Shown: one piece after another, positions 6,444 to 39,342 of the stretch
How the letters are laid out: the number at the start of each line of letters is the position of its first letter
Position numbering within the stretch: the stretch's first letter is position 1
Sequence record: ON210138.1
DNA length: 64,000 bases
Strand: one strand, 5' to 3'
Origin: Escherichia phage EC106
Position numbers and translations under genes: made by a program
Notes under the pieces: generated by a model
Seen by the model: only the letters and a program-made list of their open reading frames with translations
Told to the model about the DNA's origin: nothing
The model's database searches: none

Positions 6444-7257
6444 CGTCAGCTTGTGACATTACATAACCTTGAAACACACCACCATTCTGGTCATACTGGG
6501 TCTTCATGGCATCTAAGAAGCTGCTTACAGACTCATCATCATCACGGTAGTCCAACCAGAACTTTGTAGCCTTTTCAGGGTTTTCTTTGAAGCTCTTAAG
6601 CATTGCTGCCATAATTGGAGCAGAGTACTTTTTACGCAGTTCACACTTCTGCTTAACACCGTTTACAGTCTTCTCTTTGTACTTATCCATCTCATCCTTA
6701 TTAATGCCAAGTGCATCAATAAGTTTAAGCTCTTCTTGATAGAGTACAAATGCTTCATCAAGGCATCCACGGAGACCTAATAAGGCCCACACACCAGCAC
6801 CAGTAAATTTCTTGGTGAACGCTGTCTGTGGCTTATAACCAGAGCGTAGTATTGCAGTTGTAACTTGGTCACCATTTGTGGCTCGTGAGTCCAGTGAGTT
6901 TTCTTGGTCGTAGAGGAAATCTACTTCTTCCTGTGAATTAACGGCAAACAGTGTCACATAGACAAGTCCGTTCTTGGGAGCACCTAACTTACCATTCTTC
7001 CAGTTCTCTACGCGCGCATGAGAATCAATGTTGATAACTTCTCCATTGAATAGTACACCCGTAACACGGGAACGTAAATCCACCTCACGAAGTTCTTCAT
7101 TAAGGTAGGGTTTAGCAATTCGTCGTTCAATGCTACGGTTTGCTGAGTAAGGCTTTGCACAGTTAGCCCAATCCATGTACCCCATGAAGAAGGAAGCTAC
7201 ACCACAAACGAAATCAATCTTGCAAGGTGTTTTGCTCTGGAACTCTTTGAATTTCAT
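6418..7257 (-). CDS. ParB/Srx-like domain protein (paralog of 2639-3451)
   Basis: IDSHARVENW motif and shared KYSxxxxAAML...FW C-terminal block with 2639-3451. Confidence 0.45.
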   Translation of the reverse strand: MKFKEFQSKTPCKIDFVCGVASFFMGYMDWANCAKPYSANRSIERRIAKPYLNEELREVDLRSRVTGVLFNGEVINIDSHARVENWKNGKLGAPKNGLVYVTLFAVNSQEEVDFLYDQENSLDSRATNGDQVTTAILRSGYKPQTAFTKKFTGAGVWALLGLRGCLDEAFVLYQEELKLIDALGINKDEMDKYKEKTVNGVKQKCELRKKYSAPIMAAMLKSFKENPEKATKFWLDYRDDDESVSSFLDAMKTQYDQNGGVFQGYVMSQADVAFRAYKD

Positions 7258-9458: not shown

Positions 9459-11825
9459 TTAATCGTAAATTGTAGTCCCTTCTGGAACACACTTCACATC
9501 AAAGCCCAAGAACTTACTCACTTCGATGGGTGACACTTTATTCCAATCTAAATGAGAAAGCAAGAAGTTTTCTTGTTTTCTTTTTGAGAAGTAGTTTGTC
9601 ACCTTAATAAACATACGGTCACCAGCTTTCTTAATTTTCTTGTAAAGCTTTGTATCCTTATCAAGACACCTTTTCAAATCTTGCAACACACTAATAGTGT
9701 AAGTGTATGCAAATTGTGCAGCAACGTATTGGATTTTACCGAACATTGCCTCAACAGCATCTTCATTACCTTCTAGGAAGATAGTTTTGTTTGTGTCCCG
9801 TGAATAGCAATAACCATCAGAAATCTTCCTGTTATTGAACGTAAAGTTTCTGGTAATAATCCAACAGCTTGTAAGGTTAAGGACACCACGCATACAGATA
9901 CGTGTCATATACCTGTTATGATTAATCCAATGAACATCAGTTAAGCTGTCGTTCAAGAGCTTCTCATCTACTTCAATCCAGTCTTCTGGTATCTTTTTCC
10001 AATTTGCTTTTCGGAAAACATAGACTGTCTTCCCTATAACATTAGCAACTGACTTAGCTACATCTTCTGGAGATGAGCAAAAACATTCGCCATCAACTGT
10101 GTCACCAACTGCCTTGATGTAAAGCTGAGGTTCTTCAATTGTGTCTAAGTCTTCTGACACCTCTGTGTATGAGGCTACACCTTCTGCTGGAACAGCTTTC
10201 CAGAGTTTTACAACACCCCTTACAGCTTCTTTGTGCTGATAGTGATGTTCCTTATCAGACATTTTCACAATCTTTAACAAGCTTTTATCAAGTTTGTGTA
10301 GGTTGATTAAGTCATCTAGCTCTTTTTCAGTCGAGAATACAAACACAATACCATTATATCTGTGAAACAGACTTGACTCACTGGCGTAATCTCGACATGC
10401 ACCACGCAGAATCTGATTGCGGCCTACAGTCTTCTCAGTACCGTTTTTATTGCGACGGTCGTTTATAACAAACAAAAACTGTTCAATTTGACTTTTACGC
10501 ATTGCGCCAAAGATATTGAACATACTTGCCTCTTGAGTGTAGGAAAGTGATGTTGCACGAATCTTACTCTCTAAAGAGTTGAACTTGACATAAGCAACTG
10601 GATTGTATAGGTAGTCCACTTTAGGAATGTTGTTTCCTTTACTGTCAACCTTAATATTACCTTTGCCGTCACGTTCATAGATGACTGAGCCGTCTTCTGC
10701 GTAGATAATTCCACGACGAATGTTTAACAATTCTTCTTCCAGAGAATCAAGCTTAATGCCTCCCCACTCTAGCTTTGGACACACAACATTAAACATCTCT
10801 CGTGAGTTCAAACGTAACTCAGCATAAGCCTGTGCAGCATCCATGAGTGTAGGTTGGCTGTTAACTTTCTTGATAACATCCTTTGTAATGGCTTCAGTTA
10901 TCTTTTTAGTAGCCTCAATGATAACATTTTTTGTCGTGTCATTCATCTGCAATGCTTCACGAGAAGCTGCAATAGCCACTGAACCAATAGGCATGTAGAT
11001 GTTTACAAGGTCTATGCTCCTACGGAAAAACTCTGGCAAGACTTTGAAGAAATCATCACCAAGTAATGCTTCCATGTTCACTGGGTAGGCAATATTACCC
11101 ATCACCACATTAAACTCTGTCCTGTTACCACTAGAACGCCAGCTTTGCTTATGAATCATGGCATCATAAACACCTTCTTCACGGGCAATGACATTCATAT
11201 CTGCTAACACATCGTCATACTCGATATTACTTTCTGGTTTTACAGCAAAGTATGAGTATACATTACCAGCCTCTTCAAAGAACTTTGAAATACGGTGGTC
11301 AGCAACTGCCACACGTACAGCTAAACCATTAGGTTCTTTTGTTGGGTTAGTGGTCAGCTTAGTTACTTGAGGGATACCATTCTCAAGATAAACAGAGTAC
11401 TTATTAACAACACCATCAACATAGCTAGACACTGTGAATGACTGAGCAATTGCAAATGGGGATTTTGAGCCGATACCCATTGCACCAATGTAATCATTAG
11501 AGTCATTCTTCGTAGAAGCCCCGTAGTTTAGGTACAAACTCATAACTTTATCATGAGTCAATCCAGTTCCAAAATCACGGACTTCAAAGTAAGGCTCAAA
11601 TCGAGTAGGTAAATGTACATGGAACGGGATGTTCTCTTTTCCAGCTTCTTTCTGAGCATCTACTGCATTACATGACAGTTCACGAATCACTGCCCTTTCT
11701 TTAAATGTGTATACACCAGAACTCAGAAGGCTGAACATTTCAGGTGTCATTGTAATCTGTGCTTGAGATGTCTCCAAAGAAGTTGAACTCTTAATCACTT
11801 CTGCGTGGTCATTTACCATGCGCAT
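9459..11825 (-). CDS. rIIA: rIIA-like protein (N-terminal GHKL-type ATPase fold)
   Basis: AVIRELSCNAVDA, RDFGTGL, NDYIGAMGIGSKSPF match the T4 rIIA N-terminal region; 788 aa. Confidence 0.85.
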   Translation of the reverse strand: MRMVNDHAEVIKSSTSLETSQAQITMTPEMFSLLSSGVYTFKERAVIRELSCNAVDAQKEAGKENIPFHVHLPTRFEPYFEVRDFGTGLTHDKVMSLYLNYGASTKNDSNDYIGAMGIGSKSPFAIAQSFTVSSYVDGVVNKYSVYLENGIPQVTKLTTNPTKEPNGLAVRVAVADHRISKFFEEAGNVYSYFAVKPESNIEYDDVLADMNVIAREEGVYDAMIHKQSWRSSGNRTEFNVVMGNIAYPVNMEALLGDDFFKVLPEFFRRSIDLVNIYMPIGSVAIAASREALQMNDTTKNVIIEATKKITEAITKDVIKKVNSQPTLMDAAQAYAELRLNSREMFNVVCPKLEWGGIKLDSLEEELLNIRRGIIYAEDGSVIYERDGKGNIKVDSKGNNIPKVDYLYNPVAYVKFNSLESKIRATSLSYTQEASMFNIFGAMRKSQIEQFLFVINDRRNKNGTEKTVGRNQILRGACRDYASESSLFHRYNGIVFVFSTEKELDDLINLHKLDKSLLKIVKMSDKEHHYQHKEAVRGVVKLWKAVPAEGVASYTEVSEDLDTIEEPQLYIKAVGDTVDGECFCSSPEDVAKSVANVIGKTVYVFRKANWKKIPEDWIEVDEKLLNDSLTDVHWINHNRYMTRICMRGVLNLTSCWIITRNFTFNNRKISDGYCYSRDTNKTIFLEGNEDAVEAMFGKIQYVAAQFAYTYTISVLQDLKRCLDKDTKLYKKIKKAGDRMFIKVTNYFSKRKQENFLLSHLDWNKVSPIEVSKFLGFDVKCVPEGTTIYD

Positions 11826-17353: not shown

Positions 17354-18220
17354 TTACATAGAAACCCTATCCTTAATTTCTGCCATCTTAGCGTCATTCA
17401 TTCGAGACTGACCTTTAATTTTTGTGAATGACAAGTACCCGCACACCCTGTTAATCACAGAGATATCGTGTGAATGGCAAACCTCACACTCTTCAACATC
17501 AGCCTTTGGTCTGTTACCACAATGTTCACAGATTGCTAAGTCAAAGTTAAGTCCCTGATAAAAACCTTTCAACATGCCTCTTGTAATGCAACTTTTAAGT
17601 GCTGGTAAGTTTTCTGGGTTAGCTACCCTTACATACTGGATTCTGCCACCTCTACAGATATGGAAGAATGGCTCTTCTAAGTCCTGCTTCTCAAATGGTG
17701 AGATGTCTGCTGCAACATTCATATGGAAACTGTTTGTAAAGTATTCCTTGTCAGAAACACCTTTGATAACACCAAACATTTCTCTGAACTGTTTTAGCTG
17801 AGTTCCACAAAGTGATTCTGCTGGAGTACCATAGACGGCATATAAGAAGCCATCTTCATTTTTAAACTCTTCAGTTTTCATGTTGATGTATGCCAGAACA
17901 TTGTATGCAAAACTACAGCTTCCAACTTCATGAAGTCGTTTACCTTCAGCAAGAACAGATAGCTCATCAAGCGCAGTAACACCAAAAGAAGCTGTGAAGG
18001 ACTTCACAATATCCCAACCAACCTTGTCAGTAGGCTTCTTAGTTCCTTTGTACAGACCACCTTGTGTAAACGCAAGAGGGTTAGAACTTGCTGGCATATT
18101 AGCAATCATTTCGTAACGTTTCTTGTGGAAGCTGCGAATCATCTCTAGGTACTTATCAAGTTCTTTCCAGAAATCTAAACCATTCTCTTTAGAATACTGG
18201 TAAATCATTGGTAAGTTCAA
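17354..18220 (-). CDS. nrdD: anaerobic ribonucleotide reductase, C-terminal exon
   Basis: glycyl-radical motif RVCGYLS and zinc ribbon CEHCG...CEVCH; frame stays open upstream of the annotated start to about 18322. Confidence 0.8.
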   Translation of the reverse strand: MNLPMIYQYSKENGLDFWKELDKYLEMIRSFHKKRYEMIANMPASSNPLAFTQGGLYKGTKKPTDKVGWDIVKSFTASFGVTALDELSVLAEGKRLHEVGSCSFAYNVLAYINMKTEEFKNEDGFLYAVYGTPAESLCGTQLKQFREMFGVIKGVSDKEYFTNSFHMNVAADISPFEKQDLEEPFFHICRGGRIQYVRVANPENLPALKSCITRGMLKGFYQGLNFDLAICEHCGNRPKADVEECEVCHSHDISVINRVCGYLSFTKIKGQSRMNDAKMAEIKDRVSM

Positions 18221-19041
18221 AGATACAGCACCAATGTTTGCACGACCTACATAAAACTCTTCACCATATTCGTTATAGTATGGTGATAAAAATGCTCTAC
18301 ACTTGTTGTTCAGGTAAGTTCGCTAAGCTTACCCCGCTTTATTCAAGCTGCTTACTGTCGCCAGTAAGTCCAGACTATATCTTCTACTTATTTCTAAGTA
18401 GCGTACCATTTCGAGTCGCTTGACCCTACACCGCTACATTCATCACGGTTAGTCGTTCGGCATTTAGATGTACTCAAACTTATATTCGAAGTTATTATGC
18501 TCTTTTACACCCTTCAATATTGAAGAGATGGTCTTGCGATTGTGTCCAAGTGTATTGGATAACTCTCGTATTGACTTAGCAACAATAACTTCCTTTGTCA
18601 CTTTGTGTGTGGCTTTCACGGCATATGAACGCTTGTGGAACTTGTAGCACCCGTTCTCAATAACCCTCTTTAGCATTCTCAGAATGAGTACCCCATTCTA
18701 AGTTAGATACGTGGTTATTTAGTTTGTTATCGTCCTTATGTTTTACAATTGGAAGATTGTTCGGGTTAGGTACATATTTCTCAGCAACTAACCTGTGGAC
18801 ATACATGTCACGATTCTTCTTACCGTAAAACCTCACTTTCATATACCCAGTGTTGGATTTCCACTGCGTAAGCTCTACACCATTTTCCCTAAAAACTTTT
18901 CCATCTTCAGTGACGTGATAGTTTGGCATGTAAGACTCCTATGTTGTATAGTTTCTTACATCGTACATCATTTAGCACAGGATTGTCTACATCTGTAGAG
19001 TTTCCCTGTTTAGGCACGTTTTAGATGAGCTATAGAGCTTG
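18221..19041 (-). mobile_element. putative group I intron interrupting nrdD, carrying an HNH homing-endonuclease gene (boundaries approximate)
   Basis: nrdD split into two co-linear ORFs; intervening HNH ORF plus structured non-coding flanks. Confidence 0.6.
18464..18929 (-). CDS. HNH homing endonuclease, apparently frameshifted (two overlapping ORFs)
   Basis: HKDDNKLNNHVSNLEWGTHSENAK HNH motif in 18657-18929; C-terminal segment in 18464-18676. Confidence 0.6.
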
Positions 19042-20241
19042 TTAACCCATCGGTGAAATTACCTTGCCAGAACGCTCAAAAGCTTCTGCTACAGCACCAT
19101 GACCAGATACACTTAAGAAATCTGGATACATTGCTTTAGAGCAACACTCTATAGCTTTACTGTACAGGTGGCCTTGACAGATATTCTCATTATGTCTCTT
19201 CTGGTCATAAATATAAACCAGTTTAGGGAATACAACAGGTTTCTTGCTCTTACCTTGTCCATTCATACGAACATCTAGGAGAGTACTTGCAATCATGTAT
19301 TGTAGTCGGTTATCTTCATTGGACATATCTGAGTCAAGTAACCCGAATGTCAAAGTTGTGAATGCAAAATCACCACGGCTGCAAGGTACAGTATTTAGTT
19401 TCATCTCTAGTGACTGGAAGCCTTGAGTTAATTCAATCTGTAGCTGCTCCATGACATAATTGTGGTAATGTTCTTTAGGAATACCATAAGATGCTGCTTT
19501 CTCAGCATGATAGCGTAGAGACTTCTTAGCATACGGTACAAGTACCTTATCAATCTCTGCTAAAGTAAAGCCACCAAATTGCTGTGCAGTTGCTGAAAGA
19601 ACTACGTCACCAATAACCTGTAAGGCTGACAGTACAGACTTTGGTTCACAATATTCAATGCCAGACATTTCAAAGCCACCTTTCAGCACTTTACCAATGT
19701 CAAACAGGCAACAGTTGATACCACCAAAAATTAGGTCTCTTAAATCATGGATATAGATAAACCCTTTTTCAATGGCTTCAAGTTCCTCTGGTGTTAAGTG
19801 GTACTGTTTAAAGATTTCTTTAGTCAGATAACCACGAATAATTGAGCCTTTTGTAGAAATTAAACTGCTGTCAAAATTAGCGTTTTCTCGGTCGCCTAAG
19901 AATAGTGTATCTTTGGTCTTCTGGTAGAGTTCATCCCAATTTTGAGCAACTTCTTTACGGTAATTTCTATATGTTGAGTAAGACTCATAAATCTCGTGAT
20001 TGACTTCTGCCAAAGCACCCTCAACAATACTGTGAATATCATTTACCGAAATTAGCAAATTATTCTGCTTAGTGGACTTTACCAGAATCCTCATAAATGC
20101 TGACTCAAGAGCTTGAGTAACATCTGGTGGAAGCTCTTTATAACCAACTCTGTTAGCTGACTTTGTGACTGCTGCTAAAACTTTTTTGATATCAGGTTCT
20201 TCAAGTGAGCCATTCTTTTTAATAATCTGTACTTTGTTCAT
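19042..20241 (-). CDS. nrdD: anaerobic ribonucleotide reductase, N-terminal exon
   Basis: 399-aa ORF co-linear with the C-terminal exon; ORF probably reads into intron before its stop. Confidence 0.75.
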   Translation of the reverse strand: MNKVQIIKKNGSLEEPDIKKVLAAVTKSANRVGYKELPPDVTQALESAFMRILVKSTKQNNLLISVNDIHSIVEGALAEVNHEIYESYSTYRNYRKEVAQNWDELYQKTKDTLFLGDRENANFDSSLISTKGSIIRGYLTKEIFKQYHLTPEELEAIEKGFIYIHDLRDLIFGGINCCLFDIGKVLKGGFEMSGIEYCEPKSVLSALQVIGDVVLSATAQQFGGFTLAEIDKVLVPYAKKSLRYHAEKAASYGIPKEHYHNYVMEQLQIELTQGFQSLEMKLNTVPCSRGDFAFTTLTFGLLDSDMSNEDNRLQYMIASTLLDVRMNGQGKSKKPVVFPKLVYIYDQKRHNENICQGHLYSKAIECCSKAMYPDFLSVSGHGAVAEAFERSGKVISPMG

Positions 20242-33178: not shown

Positions 33179-33435
33179 GTAAGCCTCTTTTAAGTAACTA
33201 TTAAGTTTTAATCTTTTATCTTAACGTATTCTATACGTTATACTTTAAAGCTTTTTAAAAGCTATTAAATAATCTTTTAAGAGTTTTAAAGTATCTGTAT
33301 AGTTAAACTGTTAAGTAACCTTTTAAGTAAAAACCCACTTCGCAAAGATTAACACCTTGTCAAGTACATTGTCAACTTGCTTTTTATAATTTTTTGCAGT
33401 AATGTATGAGGTTAATGATTTTAGAGGGAGTAAAA
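33179..33435. promoter_or_regulatory. AT-rich divergent control region with repeated CTTTTAAG motifs, palindromes and TATAAT element
   Basis: CTTTTAAG at 33187, 33274, 33321; palindrome AACGTATTCTATACGTT 33223-33239; TTGTCA x2 and TATAAT at 33385-33390; SD AGGGAG at 33424-33429. Confidence 0.5.
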
Positions 33436-35619
33436 ATGGAAAACGTAGATTTTAAAAACTTACATTTGGTTGGTGATACAGAAACTGATGGTTTACTCCT
33501 TGAGTTCACTAAAGTGCACGTAATGGCCTTTGCAGACTATAAATCTGACGATGAAGAGCCACCTGTATGGGTCTTTACAGATGAGCCTATCCTCGGTCAC
33601 AAGTACACCAAGTACATTAAGGGTGGTTTACGTGAAGGTGTTGAGTTTGCGTTAAAGGCAAAACGACTTTGCATCCATAACGGTCTTGGTTATGACTGGT
33701 GGGTTTTTAATCACATTGCACCTGATTTATGGAACTTTGATAATCCAAAGTGTAAGCCGTGGAGTAATTTCTTTCAGGATTCTCTTATCCAGTCTCGTGT
33801 TCAGTGGATGGATAGACCAACTCCAAAGGGTTATAAAGGTGCTCATGGCTTGGCTGCATGGGGTGCTCGTGTTGGTGTTCGTAAGCCAGAGATTGAGCAT
33901 TGGGGTGTGTGGAATGCAGAAATCTTCACTCGTGTTGTAGAAGATATTCGTATTAACGCCAAAACTAAACGGGCACTTGATAACGAGTATCTCAAGCTTA
34001 AGAAGTGTGGTATAGACACTTATGAAACCTACATGCGAGCTAAAGAAACATCTTTCTGGATGAGTCAACAGGCTATCAATGGTTGGAAAGCTGATAAAGA
34101 ACTTATGGAGTTCCATGTAAAGGAACTTGACAAGTTGACTAATGAGCTTGCTTCAGAGGTTGAACCACATCTACCTCCAACTATTAAGACCAAAGGTAAA
34201 GTCACTGGAGAAGAGTTTGCGAAAGCTTGGAATGAGTATGTTGAAACATTTGGTCATGCAGATGGACTGAAGAGAATTACCAAGTACCCTAAGACAAAGT
34301 ATCGTCAGCAGGTACGTAATGGTGAGATGCAGACATACGAAATCAAACCATTTGGTAAGCCAACTACAAAGATTTTTAACATTGGAAAGAGAAATTGCTA
34401 TACACCAACTAACTCCGTAACTGGTGAAGAGTACAAGGAAGGCTTTGTAGCAATGAAGGATGCTCGTGCAATTTGCAATGAGTTGAACGCAAAGATTGGT
34501 AAGAAATGCAAAGACTGGAAGCCAGTAAAAACAGTCAAAACTGTGAAGTACTATAACAGCCACGTTGTTAACCACTTTGAACTTGAGTCAAGTCGCTACA
34601 CAGGTTTGATTGATGCACCATATACACCAATTGAGTTTGAAGTTTCTCGTATGACTCAGGTAGCAGTTGTTAAAGATTACTTGAAATCAGTTGGTTGGAT
34701 TCCAGATGACTGGAATTACAAGAAAGACTCAGATGGTCGCCCTGTCAAAGTTTGTCGTTTCAAAGACAATAAAAAGATGATTACAAAGCATCCTAAGTGG
34801 CAGGAAATGGTTGAGCGGTGTGGTTTGAGCTATGTTGAGCATGAAGGTGTACAGTACATTGAGCATAACTGGTCTGTGAAGAAGTACACAGATTTGCTTG
34901 AGCCTTGTTTAATCCGTACTTCACCAAAACTTACTGAATCATCTTACGATACGATTGAAGGTGAACTTGGACAGAAGATTGCGAAGTACTATACTTTGAT
35001 GCACCGACGCAGAACTATTGAGAACTCAAAGGACGACGAAAAAGGCTGGTTGAACCAGATTCGTCCAGATGGTCGCCTTAGTGCTGGTGCAATGGTGTTT
35101 GGTACTTCAACTGGACGTATGACGCAATATGGTATTGTAAACGTACCGTCTGGTGCTGCTGTCTATGGAGCACCTATGAGGGAGGTGTGGATTTGTGAGG
35201 AAGGGACTAACGTTGTCTCTGTTGATATGAACTCAGCCCAGCTAGTTCTTCTTTGTAACTTTATGGGTGATAAAGAGTCCACTAAAGCGGTAACACAAGG
35301 TAAAGAAGAGGTTGAGTTCATTCGTCAAGAAGATGGACGCTATTACTGCAAACACTTTGATGAGTACCTCAACCCAGAGATTGATAAGTACCTTCGCTAT
35401 GACTCTGAGAATGACCTGTACGTTGTCTATTCAGGGACTGATGCACATACACTGAACAGTATCTACTTTAGCTTGAACGATGAGCAGGATATCTTGACTT
35501 GTCGAGCTACTCAGGATGAGAATCTTCTTCATGAGATTAGCAAAGGTCGTAAGAAAGCTAAGAATGGTATCTATGCGTCAGTGGCGCATGTAAAACGTTG
35601 TGAATTGCTGGAAGCCTAA
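33436..35619 (+). CDS. family A DNA polymerase, N-terminal part (exon 1); ORF-track start 33406, likely start 33436 after SD
   Basis: 3'-5' exonuclease motif HLVGDTETDG, motif A VDMNSAQLVLL, motif B RKKAKNGIY near the end. Confidence 0.85.
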   Translation: MENVDFKNLHLVGDTETDGLLLEFTKVHVMAFADYKSDDEEPPVWVFTDEPILGHKYTKYIKGGLREGVEFALKAKRLCIHNGLGYDWWVFNHIAPDLWNFDNPKCKPWSNFFQDSLIQSRVQWMDRPTPKGYKGAHGLAAWGARVGVRKPEIEHWGVWNAEIFTRVVEDIRINAKTKRALDNEYLKLKKCGIDTYETYMRAKETSFWMSQQAINGWKADKELMEFHVKELDKLTNELASEVEPHLPPTIKTKGKVTGEEFAKAWNEYVETFGHADGLKRITKYPKTKYRQQVRNGEMQTYEIKPFGKPTTKIFNIGKRNCYTPTNSVTGEEYKEGFVAMKDARAICNELNAKIGKKCKDWKPVKTVKTVKYYNSHVVNHFELESSRYTGLIDAPYTPIEFEVSRMTQVAVVKDYLKSVGWIPDDWNYKKDSDGRPVKVCRFKDNKKMITKHPKWQEMVERCGLSYVEHEGVQYIEHNWSVKKYTDLLEPCLIRTSPKLTESSYDTIEGELGQKIAKYYTLMHRRRTIENSKDDEKGWLNQIRPDGRLSAGAMVFGTSTGRMTQYGIVNVPSGAAVYGAPMREVWICEEGTNVVSVDMNSAQLVLLCNFMGDKESTKAVTQGKEEVEFIRQEDGRYYCKHFDEYLNPEIDKYLRYDSENDLYVVYSGTDAHTLNSIYFSLNDEQDILTCRATQDENLLHEISKGRKKAKNGIYASVAHVKRCELLEA

Positions 35620-35891
35620 GTCTGTAAAGATATGGTAATCAGCAGCGAAGTCTCTGTTAGGACTCCTAAAGCAAATAACATAACTATAGAGATTCCTAAC
35701 AGAGAAACGTTCAGAGACTATCGAAAAGCATACTTAATGTATGAACTGAGTAGAGTAGGGTGGTAAGCTAATGACCATTCCCAAGTGCAACGGTAGTATT
35801 ACTACTACGTGATATAGTCCGACACTCCGTAGAAATGCGGAGAAGTTCATAAGAGAACTGGTACACCTTGCGAGTGTATTGACCAGATGTA
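35575..35891 (+). other. putative ORF-less group I intron (or split-gene junction) in DNA polymerase gene; boundaries approximate
   Basis: polymerase motif B ends exon 1 and GAGDEK continuation starts 35892; about 270-310 nt of structured non-coding sequence between. Confidence 0.5.
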
Positions 35892-36446
35892 TTGTTCGGT
35901 GCAGGTGATGAGAAGTTTGCTAAGACGATTAAAGCTGCAACTACTCAGGAAGGTGCGCTGACTAAACAGACTTACTTTATACGTTTGCCTAAAATTAAGA
36001 AGCTGTTAGATGACTTGGAAGCTGACTACAAAGCAACTAAAAAGGCACTTGAAGAGGTGTTTGGTAAGACTGCTGCAATCTCTAAAGGGGGTTTTGTAAA
36101 GGTTGCTGGAGCTTGGTTGTGGTGTAAATCTCCACATAAGTTATTGAATTATTTGCTCATGGGTTCGGAAAGTCAGATTCAGAACGAGGCAATTAACCTT
36201 GCTTGCCGTCGTATGATTGACGAAGGTTTGATGAAGTTGAACGGTCGTAAACCAGCCATAGGTGCTCGTTTATTGTGCTCCTATCACGACGAGACAAGTT
36301 GGGAATGTCCAGAAAGTATGACGGCAGAGGTGAAGGCTGTCACTGATTGGTATTACGGACAAGCCTCTAAGAACTTAGGGCTAAAGAGTGAAACACTGGT
36401 AACTGGTACTGGTAAGGTTGGTAAAAGCTGGTATGAGGTACATTGA
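35892..36446 (+). CDS. family A DNA polymerase, C-terminal part (exon 2)
   Basis: LFGAGDEKFAKTI continues motif B; motif C SYHDE; C-terminal ...YEVH. Confidence 0.85.
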   Translation: MFGAGDEKFAKTIKAATTQEGALTKQTYFIRLPKIKKLLDDLEADYKATKKALEEVFGKTAAISKGGFVKVAGAWLWCKSPHKLLNYLLMGSESQIQNEAINLACRRMIDEGLMKLNGRKPAIGARLLCSYHDETSWECPESMTAEVKAVTDWYYGQASKNLGLKSETLVTGTGKVGKSWYEVH

Positions 36447-36958
36447 TGCGAGATTGTGGATTCACACATGAACAGTTAAAGTCTTGGTTAAACTATGACC
36501 CCGAAACAGGGGTCTTAACGTGGATTGGCAGACCTCCACATAGTAGTAGGGTGGTTATTGGGAGCCAAGCCGGAGCAATCAAGCGCACAAGGTCTGGTGT
36601 GTATATGCACACACAGATTTTAGGATACAGGACAGGCAATCACCGAATTGCTTGGTTCTGGATGACAGGTAAGTGGCCTGATAAACACATTGACCATAAA
36701 GATGGAGATGGTTTGAATAACGCTTGGGACAATCTAAGAGAGGCCACAAAAGAGCAGAACATGTCCAATAGGAGACAACCTAGAACATCAAAAAACTTAA
36801 AAGGTACAAGTAGAAGCAAGTCTGGTAAGTGGATAGCCCAGATTAACCATAATGGCAAGACTATACATATAGGGACATACACAACAGAAGAAGAAGCCCA
36901 TAAAGCTTACTGTGAAGCTGCTATTAAACTCCACGGAGAGTTTGCAAAACTAAGTTGA
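36443..36958 (+). CDS. HNH homing endonuclease with AP2-type DNA-binding domain
   Basis: HIDHKDGDGLNNAWDNL HNH motif; C-terminal GKWIAQI...YTTEEEAHKAY AP2-like; start overlaps polymerase stop. Confidence 0.75.
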   Translation: MMRDCGFTHEQLKSWLNYDPETGVLTWIGRPPHSSRVVIGSQAGAIKRTRSGVYMHTQILGYRTGNHRIAWFWMTGKWPDKHIDHKDGDGLNNAWDNLREATKEQNMSNRRQPRTSKNLKGTSRSKSGKWIAQINHNGKTIHIGTYTTEEEAHKAYCEAAIKLHGEFAKLS

Positions 36959-37009
36959 CAAGGTGCTCAGGGAAGAGTACCTTATACTATATCTTGTATA
37001 GGAGGGCTT

Positions 37010-37219
37010 ATGAGCCACCGTGGAAGAACCCATGCAGCGATGATGAAAGGTGCTTCAAAGGAAACTATCAAGAACCGTAAGCAGAAGTTGTTTGAGAGAA
37101 TGAACAGGCTAATTGACAATTCATCTCTTTCAGGTTCTGAGAAGGTTTTCTTGAAAGGTAATCTGAAAAGCATTGCACAAGAACTTATTGACATTGAGTA
37201 TTGGAGACATCAAAAATGA
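37010..37219 (+). CDS. hypothetical protein
   Basis: co-oriented small ORF. Confidence 0.35.
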   Translation: MSHRGRTHAAMMKGASKETIKNRKQKLFERMNRLIDNSSLSGSEKVFLKGNLKSIAQELIDIEYWRHQK

Positions 37220-38060: not shown

Positions 38061-38242
38061 AAACAGAACCTGTAAGAACTGAAGACGGAAACATTGAGAC
38101 GTTCATAATCACAGTAGCTGGTGGTGAGTTCTCTTGCAAATGTGGGTGTAATTGCTTTCATAAACCTGACAACACAAAATTAGGTTTATATGAATGTAAT
38201 AGCTGCGGTGCAAGATTCTTAGATAAGAGCAAGGAGATGTGA
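38057..38242 (+). CDS. small zinc-ribbon protein
   Basis: CKCGCNC...CNSCG motifs. Confidence 0.35.
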   Translation: MKTEPVRTEDGNIETFIITVAGGEFSCKCGCNCFHKPDNTKLGLYECNSCGARFLDKSKEM

Positions 38243-39342
38243 TGACAATTCTGTACAAACAAAATAAAGACGGTTCCTTCAACATCTGGTCATGCGGTGC
38301 TATAGGTAACAAAGTTATTACAACCTATGGTAAAGAAAACGGAAAGATGATGTTTGAAGAGTATACAGCAGAACCTAAAAACATCGGTAAAAAGAATGAG
38401 CGTAATGCTGAACAGCAAGCTCTCTTTGAAGTTGCTGCTAAGTATAAAAAGCAAGTTGACCGCAAAGGTTATGCTTACACAAAAGAGTCTGCACAGAATA
38501 CTGAGAAGGTAGGTGTACAGCTTGCTCATGATGCTGCAAAGGTTAGTCATGCAAAGTATCTGAAATTTCCTGCTGATGCTCAACCGAAACTGGATGGTGT
38601 TCGTTGTAGAATTTCAAGAGATGATGATTCAGTTAGTTTCACAGCCTATTCTCGTGAGAATACTGTTTACAACGTTCCAACAGAACTAATCCCAGATTTG
38701 CTTTTGTTGCTTAAATTACATCCACAAGTTGAAGACTTTGATGGAGAGATTTATGCTCATGGTTGGGACTTAGAAGATATTGTATCTATGATTAAGAATG
38801 CTGACAATCCAGACCGTCACCTTCTTAAGTTCTACTGGTATGATATCTGCGACAATTCAAAAACTTGGCCTGAGCGTCGTGAAGTTATTGATAACTCACC
38901 CATTGTTGAGCTTGGTGATACCTGTAGAGTGGTTCCTGTACAGACTATCCGTGTAAATTCTTGGGAAGAGTTTGATGAAGCCCATGATAAGTGGGTTGAA
39001 GCTAAGTTTGAAGGTGCAATGTACCGTTCAATCTCTGAAGACTCCTTCTACGAGTGTTGTCACCGTTCATACTTCTTGATTAAGCACAAGAAGATGCACA
39101 CTGAAGAGTTTAAAGTGACTGGTGTAAAGACCGATAAGCGTGGTCATGGTAAGTTCGTTGTAGAGACTCTTCCTAACGTCTTTGTAGATGTCTCATGGAA
39201 GACTACACACGAGAAGAAACAGTATCTTGCTGAACATCCTGAAGAGTTTATCGGGAAGCCTTTAACGGTTCAGTTCCAGAAGATGACTCGTAAGGGTTCT
39301 TTACAGTTCCCTGTTGGGCTAGTTATTAGGGATTACGAATAA
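38239..39342 (+). CDS. ATP-dependent DNA ligase
   Basis: adenylation motif I PKLDGVRCRI; 367 aa. Confidence 0.85.
   Translation: MMTILYKQNKDGSFNIWSCGAIGNKVITTYGKENGKMMFEEYTAEPKNIGKKNERNAEQQALFEVAAKYKKQVDRKGYAYTKESAQNTEKVGVQLAHDAAKVSHAKYLKFPADAQPKLDGVRCRISRDDDSVSFTAYSRENTVYNVPTELIPDLLLLLKLHPQVEDFDGEIYAHGWDLEDIVSMIKNADNPDRHLLKFYWYDICDNSKTWPERREVIDNSPIVELGDTCRVVPVQTIRVNSWEEFDEAHDKWVEAKFEGAMYRSISEDSFYECCHRSYFLIKHKKMHTEEFKVTGVKTDKRGHGKFVVETLPNVFVDVSWKTTHEKKQYLAEHPEEFIGKPLTVQFQKMTRKGSLQFPVGLVIRDYE

Follow-up and report, generated by a model that had tools for sequence, protein, structure and literature searches.

The DNA polymerase gene of Escherichia phage EC106, a Felix O1-like myovirus (Felixounavirus), appears to be an essential gene that accommodates two independent selfish elements, with a group I intron inserted in it and an HNH-AP2 endonuclease gene beside it; we place the probability of this reading at roughly 0.88. 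The family-A enzyme encoded by the gene is the sole replicative polymerase of the phage (PMC3185647). Judged from sequence, the insert is an ordinary group I intron, and the polymerase is split only in appearance. The features of the region are collected in Table 1, in coordinates of the window, by which we mean the whole 64,000-nt stretch of DNA that was analysed.

Table 1. Polymerase exons, intron elements and downstream endonuclease gene, in window coordinates
Feature	Coordinates	Strand	Evidence
Family-A DNA polymerase, exon 1	33415..35578	+	ORF; PF00476 (DNA_pol_A) on the spliced product; end from alignment to intronless alleles
Group I intron, 311 nt, without endonuclease ORF, terminal G 35889	35579..35889	+	Rfam RF00028; fold; variants
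P1 hairpin	35572..35590	+	Covariance-model alignment; MFE fold
P3 5' strand (35596-35602), P4 (35606-35611/35639-35644), P5 (35614-35616/35634-35636 and 35620-35623/35628-35631)	35596..35644	+	Covariance-model alignment; folds
In-frame TAA within the intron	35617..35619	+	ORF end
P6/P6a	35646..35709	+	Fold; alignment to the 780-805-nt introns
Catalytic core	35716..35819	+	Match to Rfam consensus AGACUA...GAUAUAGUC; helices in folds
P9 (35825-35842), P9.1 (35844-35859), P9.2 (35861-35879)	35825..35879	+	Covariance-model alignment; folds
DNA polymerase, exon 2 (TA TTG TTC GGT ... CAT TGA)	35890..36446	+	Remainder of motif B and motif C
Free-standing HNH_3 + AP2 homing endonuclease gene, 170 aa	36446..36958	+	Pfam; PHROG 99

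The polymerase frame (33406..35619) runs past motif B after RKKAKNGIYA and then reaches the intronic TAA; it picks up again at 35883 with LFGAGDEK and closes with the TGA at 36444-36446. The start of exon 1 is uncertain, with candidate ATG codons at 33406, 33415 and 33436. Alignment to the intronless phage ASO1A and 23 further intronless loci gave an insert of exactly 311 nt, where the earlier estimate had been about 270-310 nt placed in a conserved helix. The intronless relatives used to fix the splice sites are 96-98% identical and read TAT GCA CTG CTG TTC GGT (O-helix site of the ASO1A type, ATCTATGCACTGCTGTTCGGTGCAGG), where the window reads TAT GCG T, the 311 nt, and TA TTG TTC GGT. The final base of exon 1 is therefore the T that opens a Leu codon inside motif B, and both the intronless and the spliced window alleles encode Y-A-L-L-F-G. 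Predicted splicing restores KNGIYALLFGAGDEK, the protein sequence found in the continuous 906-aa polymerase, with NGIYALLFGAGDEK as the predicted peptide across the exon junction.

The insertion lies inside motif B (the O-helix), in the codon equivalent to F528 of T7 gp5 and approximately to L764 of E. coli Pol I. A phmmer search against the PDB aligned GRKKAKNGIYALLFGAGDEKFAK to T7 gp5 517-TRDNAKTFIYGFLYGAGDEKIGQ, and the spliced product aligns to residues 517-638 of that protein; exon 1 ends within motif B and exon 2 resumes with LFGAGDEK in a stretch that is continuous in T7, as the original prediction held. Its placement of the break between motifs B and C needs correction, given that motif B itself is interrupted and motif C (YHDE) is encoded by exon 2. 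The spliced product matches the Pfam profile PF00476 and has motif B (R-x3-K-x3-F/Y-x3-Y/F-G) and motif C (HDE) in one polypeptide, whereas unspliced mRNA would yield a truncated polymerase without motif C.

The covariance-model search that had been suggested as a check matched the insert to RF00028 (Intron_gpI) with 62.9 bits, the gathering score being 50, across positions 35567-35842 and the full model (1-253); the E-value was 5.4e-15 in a local search and 1.4e-13 when the whole window was searched. It is the sole gathering-level Rfam match within the 64-kb window and, together with a U.G pair in P1, a terminal G and the restoration of a continuous polymerase, it bears out the earlier suggestion of a compact group I intron. 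In P1, 8 bp are formed between the internal guide GGCGCAUG and the 5' exon sequence UAUGCGU plus C, with U35578.G35584 as the wobble at the 5' splice site. The pre-mRNA would self-splice by the guanosine-initiated two-step reaction: the 5' exon would pair with the internal guide to form the U.G wobble, the intron would end at G35889, and GCG T would be joined to TA TTG, giving A-L-L as in the intronless orthologues and a continuous polymerase of about 906 aa.

The exon end GCGT was found in all 10 intron-bearing alleles, and the same 10 have the intron flanked by GCGT on the 5' side and TATTG on the 3' side, a 9-mer that occurs in 0 of the 24 intronless alleles. The G at -2 and the U at -1 are both paired in P1, and the corresponding changes in the 5' exon (A to G at -2, C to U at -1) are the only two that it clearly needs. 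We also considered whether the changes in the 3' exon (TG CTG to TA TTG) had created a P10 helix and rejected this, as both versions pair equally well with CAGUG.

The helices of the conserved core (P3-P8, with the P3/P7 pseudoknot) are all present in the model. P6a contains a perfect 12-bp stem (35651-35662/35694-35705), and in P7 GACUA (35716-35720) pairs with UAGUC (35815-35819), enclosing P7.1 (35729-35743), P7.2 (35758-35782), the P3 3' strand (35786-35792) and P8 (35793-35808). An independent MFE fold returned P1, P3-P6a, P7.1, P7.2, P8, P9, P9.1 and P9.2, with a z-score of -3.57. Across 10 variants 99.8% of cells are paired, with only two compensatory U-A/C-G changes, one in P6a and one in P8, in an alignment of nearly invariant relatives (mean column identity 92%). 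The P7.1 and P7.2 hairpins lie between P7 and the P3 3' strand and are joined by a GUA-containing segment, and P2 is absent. Their presence in this position is the criterion for subgroup IA2 (PMC3428280), by which the modelled structure can be described as IA2-like.

The element had been described as ORF-less, and no ORF with a family match was found in the intron with the ORF list, Pfam and PHROG. NJ12 lists a hypothetical 44-aa ORF at 35632-35766, for which neither Pfam nor PHROG gave a match; we consider it spurious because, besides lacking a family match, it overlaps P5-P7.1 and is truncated to only 8 codons in a 268-nt form of the intron. An intein is not applicable, since the insert is a ribozyme and contains in-frame stops. 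Scans for sigma-70 promoters and terminators between 33200 and 37300 gave matches no more numerous than in shuffled sequence.

The original prediction had offered as its alternative a genuinely split polymerase, in which the two ORFs would be translated separately and assemble into a two-subunit enzyme, and records for NJ12, Mushroom, GEC_vB_B1 and others do annotate two polymerase CDSs ('DNA polymerase' and 'DNA polymerase subunit'). Against this, the segment between the ORFs is a complete group I ribozyme above the Rfam threshold whose P1 is formed by the exon flanks, the interruption comes midway along the O-helix and splits a codon after its first base, exon 2 offers TTG 35892 as its sole start, with no in-frame ATG and no Shine-Dalgarno sequence, and phages 96-98% identical encode a single continuous 906-aa protein (PMC3185647). 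Considering the ribozyme, the lack of an ATG in exon 2 and the continuous orthologues in near-identical phages, we rejected the split polymerase as scarcely credible. We regard as equally improbable a decayed intron or pseudogene, with splicing lost and a polymerase that would be non-functional or reliant on a co-infecting helper. In the homing cycle an intron loses its endonuclease ORF before it is itself lost, but the core helices are all intact, with the pairing and compensatory changes described above, several phages that form plaques and were isolated independently (Mushroom, GEC_vB_NS7, Tf and warpig) carry an identical intron, and the phage has no replicative polymerase besides this one.

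A group I intron in a Felix O1-like polymerase is of an already known kind: the gene is annotated as a joined CDS in some relatives, as in the record of phage Meda, and mis-annotated as two in others, and the Endo VII proteins of the Felix O1-like phages JH2, EC6 and FSL SP-010 are listed as intron-encoded (PMC6083498). The findings leave the current understanding of group I introns and homing endonucleases unchanged. Their main value lies in annotation: in GenBank, a single intron-containing gene is entered as two polymerase genes in many Felix O1-like phage records, including those of some phages used in Salmonella and E. coli biocontrol.

Besides the 311-nt form, the relatives carry a 268-nt form without an ORF and forms of 780-805 nt with an Endo VII-type homing endonuclease (PF02945, 6e-20) in the P6a loop. 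The long forms share with the window intron the insertion site, the flanking GCGT and TATTG, and a ribozyme that is 95-100% identical outside the P6a loop. They differ in carrying a 161-aa Endo VII ORF, of which the window intron keeps the last two codons and the stop (AGC AAA TAA, 35670-35678, in the P6a loop), and the polymerase backbone around the window intron is otherwise typical of intronless phages, unlike that of the long-form carriers. Because these two codons and the stop have been retained, the window intron probably arose from the 780-805-nt form by deletion; its sequence GACTCCTAAA followed directly by GCAAATAACATAAC is a hybrid of the two imperfect repeats found on either side of the Endo VII ORF in the long forms. 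The event could also have run in the opposite direction, by insertion of the ORF into a short form.

The window intron and that of GEC_vB_B1 are 99-100% identical, against only 64-90% for the flanking exons of that phage, and the window exons are 96-100% identical to those of intronless phages. Flanking conversion at its acquisition covered less than about 30 nt, and the receiving backbone already resembled the HNH-bearing intronless ASO1A. Lacking its ORF, it would no longer promote its own spread; it would still interrupt the homing site and, because that site is disrupted, should be immune to the Endo VII-type enzyme. With intronless alleles, an Endo VII intron and two apparent ORF-less derivatives, Felixounavirus offers a natural homing-cycle series.

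Phage family-A polymerase introns have been characterised at three sites, equivalent to residues 674, 676 and 881 of E. coli Pol I (PMC3428280). Those introns likewise lack P2 and contain P7.1 and P7.2, and they carry an endonuclease ORF in P6a, as do the Felixounavirus long forms. They differ in site, the window intron being at position ~764 in motif B, and in their enzymes, which are of the HNH type, whereas the Felixounavirus intronic enzyme is of the Endo VII type and is gone from the window copy. None of these three sites is the O-helix codon, and related Endo VII introns lie a few nucleotides away in other phages. One of them, in Yersinia phage Berlin (NC_008694, joined CDS), also interrupts polymerase motif B and shares a 3' domain with GAUAUAGUC and an identical P9.1, AGUUCAUAAGAGAAC, its Endo VII being 45% identical to the Felixounavirus enzyme. 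The Berlin intron differs in its position 11 nt upstream (T7 codon F524, phase 2, against codon 528, phase 1, in the window), in the retention of its ORF and in its Rfam score of only 26 bits.

The P9.1 sequence was also found, by a scan for the 3' motif, in at least 120 IMG/VR stretches. The 3' domain is common to introns in many unrelated genes, and only 2 of the 126 scan matches adjoin a polymerase motif B. Partial blastn matches of the intron (Staphylococcus phage 6ec-like genomes, Erwinia phage MIF8, a crAss-like phage and others) were rejected as relatives at this site: they lie in other genes (endolysin, RNAP2) and owe their similarity to the conserved group I core alone.

Directly downstream of the polymerase, an HNH-AP2 gene had been predicted at 36443-36958, overlapping the polymerase stop as ATGA. 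The overlap, the 3' end and both domains stand (HNH_3, PF13392, 1.3e-14, 53.9 bits against a cut-off of 24.8; AP2, PF00847, 1.9e-09, 38.1 bits against 33.3), and the gene, which is intact, matches the PHROG 99 HNH endonucleases at 5e-63, sharing with them a two-domain layout in which the HNH_3 nuclease is N-terminal and the DNA-binding AP2 domain C-terminal. The junction and the start codon have to be revised. Relatives annotate an ATG start, which gives 170 aa, and this ATG at 36446 shares its A with the polymerase TGA in the sequence TGATG; the TTG at 36443 is an alternative and would give TTGA. A Shine-Dalgarno sequence, GAGG, is located at 36436-36439.

The sample of 34 related loci comprised 24 intronless and 10 intron-bearing ones. 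At least 89% identical copies of the HNH gene occupy the same TGATG junction in 11 of the 34, six of these 11 being intronless, and the gene is missing from half (5/10) of the intron-bearing loci. Its boundaries are sharp: in one locus (L029) the polymerase is 52-88% identical per 50-nt bin, against 92-98% in the HNH block (36440-36940). Alleles without the gene place its insertion point between CACTAA and TTAGTATTGACAAGG, their junction reading GGCTTGAAGTACACTAATTAGTATTGACAAGG in the L010/L011 type. On this evidence, the HNH gene behaves as an independent free-standing homing cassette with mosaic boundaries of its own. Its enzyme probably cleaves or nicks HNH-less alleles near the polymerase 3' end and the intergenic junction, after which the gene would be copied in by repair, that is, by intronless homing.

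Collaborative, or trans, homing would instead have the HNH-AP2 enzyme cut the intronless polymerase at or near the insertion site, or within co-conversion distance of it, and so mobilise the ORF-less intron. The geometry fits, with the intron 557 nt upstream of the free-standing gene, and the concept is documented by the trans homing pairs of F-CphI with the psbA intron and of T4 MobE with the nrdB intron (PMC3984707, PMC2790892). Phage T3 has a similar arrangement, its gene 5.3, accompanied by the PhiI intron, encoding an HNH_3 protein directly after the polymerase gene; gp5.3, however, lacks AP2 and has no detectable homology to the window protein outside the HNH_3 domain. The distribution also argues against this mode of homing, with the intron present in 5 of 11 HNH-bearing and 5 of 23 HNH-less loci (Fisher p=0.23 over the 34 loci, their shared kinship being ignored). 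From -40 to +36, the insertion-site sequence of two HNH-bearing intronless loci (L006 and L009) is identical to that of an HNH-less one (L010), and therefore an HNH enzyme that cut there would cut its own genome. Tracts of high identity surround the HNH gene but extend at most about 250 nt upstream, never as far as the insertion site, and the short conversion tract of the window intron lies in a backbone already like that of an HNH-bearing intronless phage. Neither the 34-locus distribution nor the mosaic boundaries nor the insertion-site sequences gave evidence that the HNH gene mobilises the intron, and we consider trans homing unlikely here. Unlike the T3, F-CphI and MobE pairs, the HNH gene and the intron in the window are independent in distribution and in mosaic boundaries.

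The broader proposal, that the HNH-AP2 enzyme acts in trans on the intron, that its translation is coupled to the spliced polymerase message, or both, seems to us likewise unlikely. Coupling is conceivable because the start codon of the HNH gene overlaps the stop of exon 2, and endonuclease output would then depend on splicing; if the proposal were true, the intron would cooperate with the HNH gene as a single mobile unit, at a polymerase site that is new (O-helix, E. coli Pol I position ~764).

Several HNH-AP2 cassettes compete for the site after the polymerase stop in the genus. At least three other HNH-AP2 lineages, 39-49% identical, occupy it in other Felixounaviruses, and tblastn matches to the HNH-AP2 endonuclease in phage genomes number in the thousands.

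The polymerase gene of this Felixounavirus (a Felix O1-like myovirus) is interrupted by a group I intron of the ordinary kind, which carries no ORF. The segment 33400-37000 is matched by 263 phage records, nearly all from Felix O1-like phages of Salmonella, Escherichia and Shigella, with Salmonella phage NJ12 as the top full-length match (94.6%); the Felix O1 genome paper described a 906-aa polymerase and reported zero introns (PMC3185647). The Rfam model Intron_gpI aligned over its full length to 35567-35842 with 62.9 bits (E=5e-15; gathering score, 50), the sole gathering-level RNA family match within the 64-kb window. The parsed alignment gave the helices listed in the table, with P2 absent, and an independently run minimum-free-energy fold returned the same helices plus P7.1, P7.2, P9.1 and P9.2 (z = -3.57 against shuffles). 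Together, P7.1 and P7.2 are the hallmark for placing phage polymerase introns in subgroup IA2 (PMC3428280). Across 10 intron variants the ribozyme was near-invariant, with 99.8% of cells paired and compensatory U-A/C-G pairs found once in P6a and once in P8.

Features of the polymerase locus, elements of the intron and intron forms in related phages
Feature	Position or size	Strand	Details
ORF, N-terminal 80% of family-A DNA polymerase	33406-35619	+	
ORF, remainder of polymerase	frame open from 35883, end 36446	+	
ORF, HNH-AP2 gene	36446/36443-36958	+	170/171 aa
P1	U35578.G35584 (splice-site wobble)		last exon bases UAUGCGU paired with GGCGCAUG; model alignment
P3, P4, P5, P6/P6a, P8, P9			present; parsed model alignment
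P7 conserved strands	GACUA 35716-35720, UAGUC 35815-35819		parsed model alignment
Intron form 1	311 nt		ORF-less; window, NJ12; identical copies in Mushroom, GEC_vB_NS7, Tf, warpig
Intron form 2	268 nt		ORF-less, short P6; e.g. Meda
Intron form 3	780-805 nt		161-aa Endo VII-type ORF in P6a loop; e.g. GEC_vB_B1, EC6, VpaE1, Si3

The boundaries come from alignment with the continuous 906-aa polymerase gene of phage ASO1A, whose flanking exons are 97-98% identical to those of the window. The ASO1A sequence ...TAT GCA CTG CTG TTC GGT... corresponds to ...TAT GCG T[311 nt]TA TTG TTC GGT... in the window, placing the intron at 35579-35889, preceded by U and ending in G. The predicted spliced product (...KNGIYALLFGAGDEK...) has the protein sequence of the intronless enzyme and matches PF00476. 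In the unspliced mRNA, the TAA at 35617-35619 would end translation and yield a product lacking motif C (YHDE), which is encoded by exon 2; this exon lacks both an in-frame ATG and a Shine-Dalgarno sequence. The original prediction had offered a compact group I intron or a truly split polymerase and proposed a covariance-model search; the above-threshold Rfam match and the restored intronless protein confirm the former, and we reject the split gene.

The spliced polymerase aligns to T7 gp5 517-638, and the Leu codon split by the intron is equivalent to T7 F528, in the O-helix between Y526 and Y530; the intron therefore lies inside motif B. In E. coli Pol I numbering this is about L764, unlike the characterised phage polymerase intron sites at 674 (SPO1, SP82, Bastille, Pf-WMP3), 676 (phiL7) and 881 (PhiI, W31) (PMC3428280). 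Among 34 loci (the window, 4 from GenBank and 29 from IMG/VR), 10 carry the intron and 24 are intronless. The junction 9-mer GCGT/TATTG occurs in all 10 intron-bearing alleles and in 0 of the 24 intronless ones. Of its exon changes, the pair on the 5' side (A to G at -2 and C to U at -1) accounts for the P1 pairing, and the pair on the 3' side is neutral for P10. Two IMG/VR loci (L014 and L016, junction 5177) are intronless yet have intron-type 5' flanks, GCGT/TGCTG and GCGT/TACTG, which may have been left behind by intron loss or by partial co-conversion.

About 96 phage records contain the intron at 80% coverage or more, in three forms. The ORF of the long form matches PF02945 (6e-20) and is bracketed by imperfect direct repeats, GACTCCTAAAACAAA upstream and GACTACCTAAGCAAATAA at its end. 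The window intron carries a hybrid of these repeats, GACTCCTAAA joined to GCAAATAACATAAC, which keeps the last two Endo VII codons and stop (AGC AAA TAA, 35670-35678). On the simplest reading, the Endo VII gene would have been deleted via recombination between the flanking repeats; the opposite direction, ORF insertion into the short form, is conceivable. The window intron is 99-100% identical to the GEC_vB_B1/EC6 copy, whose flanking exons are only 64-90% identical per 50-nt bin, while the window exons are 96-100% identical to those of intronless ASO1A, L011 and L028 as far as the four junction bases. This pattern is the mark of a site-specific gain in which very little flanking sequence was co-converted; the intron has moved on its own.

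An HNH-AP2 endonuclease gene had also been predicted at the polymerase stop, and here both domains were found in the product of 36446-36958 (HNH_3, 1.3e-14; AP2, 1.9e-09), which is assigned to PHROG 99. The ATG of this gene overlaps the polymerase stop by a single base (TGATG), with GAGG 6 nt upstream. In 11 of the 34 loci the exact TGATG junction is occupied by a copy at least 89% identical; other HNH-AP2 lineages (39-49% identical) lie there in 11, and 12 have none, the empty site reading ...GTACACTAA/TTAGTATTGACAAGG.... The layout is like that of collaborative or trans homing pairs (PMC3984707, PMC2790892), in which case the HNH-AP2 enzyme would mobilise the ORF-less intron; we consider this very unlikely. 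The window-type gene accompanies the intron in 5 of its 11 loci and occurs without it in 6, and is missing from 5 of the 10 loci with the intron (Fisher's exact p = 0.23, 34 loci). The mosaic boundaries are likewise independent: in comparison locus L029, polymerase identity to the window rises from 52-88% to 92-98% exactly over 36440-36940, and in other loci the high-identity tract covers no more than about 250 nt of the polymerase 3' end, always stopping short of the intron site. HNH-bearing intronless phages share the insertion-site sequence from -40 to +36 with HNH-less phages, so that such an enzyme would cleave its own genome; this objection is not absolute, because some HNH nickases, such as I-HmuI, do so (PMC3428280). 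The likeness to T3 gp5.3 is limited to the HNH_3 domain. The evidence is thus against a functional link, and the HNH-AP2 gene is an independent free-standing homing endonuclease gene. The last five polymerase codons are TAT GAG GTA CAT TGA in HNH-bearing versus CTT GAA GTA CAC TAA in empty alleles, a pattern expected if the HNH-AP2 target were there.

The short interval that separates the polymerase stop from the following gene (window 36940-37010; L005-L033) is a hot spot: depending on the Felixounavirus, it holds no gene or one of at least four HNH-AP2 lineages, which are 39-49% identical to each other's type. The last 70 nt of the window HNH gene (36889-36958) are 97-100% identical in several unrelated alleles and mark a common recombination boundary beside a conserved TTGACAAGGTGCTCA element.

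For JH2, EC6 and FSL SP-010, Endo VII proteins were listed as intron-encoded in 2018 (PMC6083498), and two introns were mentioned among the ncRNAs of Felixounavirus SPJ41 in 2023 (PMC9951933); our literature search found no paper pairing 'Felixounavirus' with 'group I intron'. Most GenBank records of relatives annotate two polymerase CDSs, split as 'DNA polymerase' and 'DNA polymerase subunit' in those of Mushroom (identical intron, 2601-2911), L001 and L002 (GEC_vB_B1). Some of these records also list the spurious 44-aa ORF within the intron as a hypothetical protein; only a few records of relatives, that of Meda among them, have a joined CDS. The main use of our results is correct annotation; the Felixounavirus forms also make up a natural series in which to follow the homing cycle.

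Yersinia phage Berlin has a related intron in the same motif, 11 nt upstream, with a 45% identical Endo VII ORF. Related Endo VII-encoding group I introns lie in motif B in Berlin (L038, 2310-3000) and L117 (IMG/VR 3300045994_000147, 9810-10580). In these T7-like polymerases the sites, neighbouring but distinct, are T7 codon F524 phase 2 (Berlin) and Y526 phase 1 (L117); the Felixounavirus intron is at codon 528, phase 1. A single intron/endonuclease lineage appears to have moved along the part of the gene that encodes the O-helix. The 3' domain motif GATATAGTC-N(18-30)-AGTTCATAAGAGAAC, comprising the P7 3' strand, P9 and P9.1, was found in 120 or more stretches of viral contigs (IMG/VR L039-L158), adjoining polymerase motif B in only 2 of 126 among the matches listed. 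The motif thus indicates a very widespread phage intron lineage, resident in many different genes.

Elsewhere in the window, the anaerobic ribonucleotide reductase gene nrdD (17354-20241, minus strand) is split into an N-part of 399 aa (19042-20241) and a C-part of 284-288 aa (17354-18208/18220), described only as split by a homing endonuclease (PMC4837284). The gap of about 830 nt holds two sub-threshold group I matches (34.5 bits, E=1e-6, 18351-18531; 16.2 bits, 18894-19009) and an HNH_3 ORF in two pieces (18657-18929 and 18464-18676), and probably represents another group I intron, one whose endonuclease gene is decaying. DNA ligase, one 367-aa ORF in the window (38239-39342), is annotated as two overlapping CDSs in GEC_vB_B1 (6633-7095), probably because the record contains a frameshift or a sequencing error.
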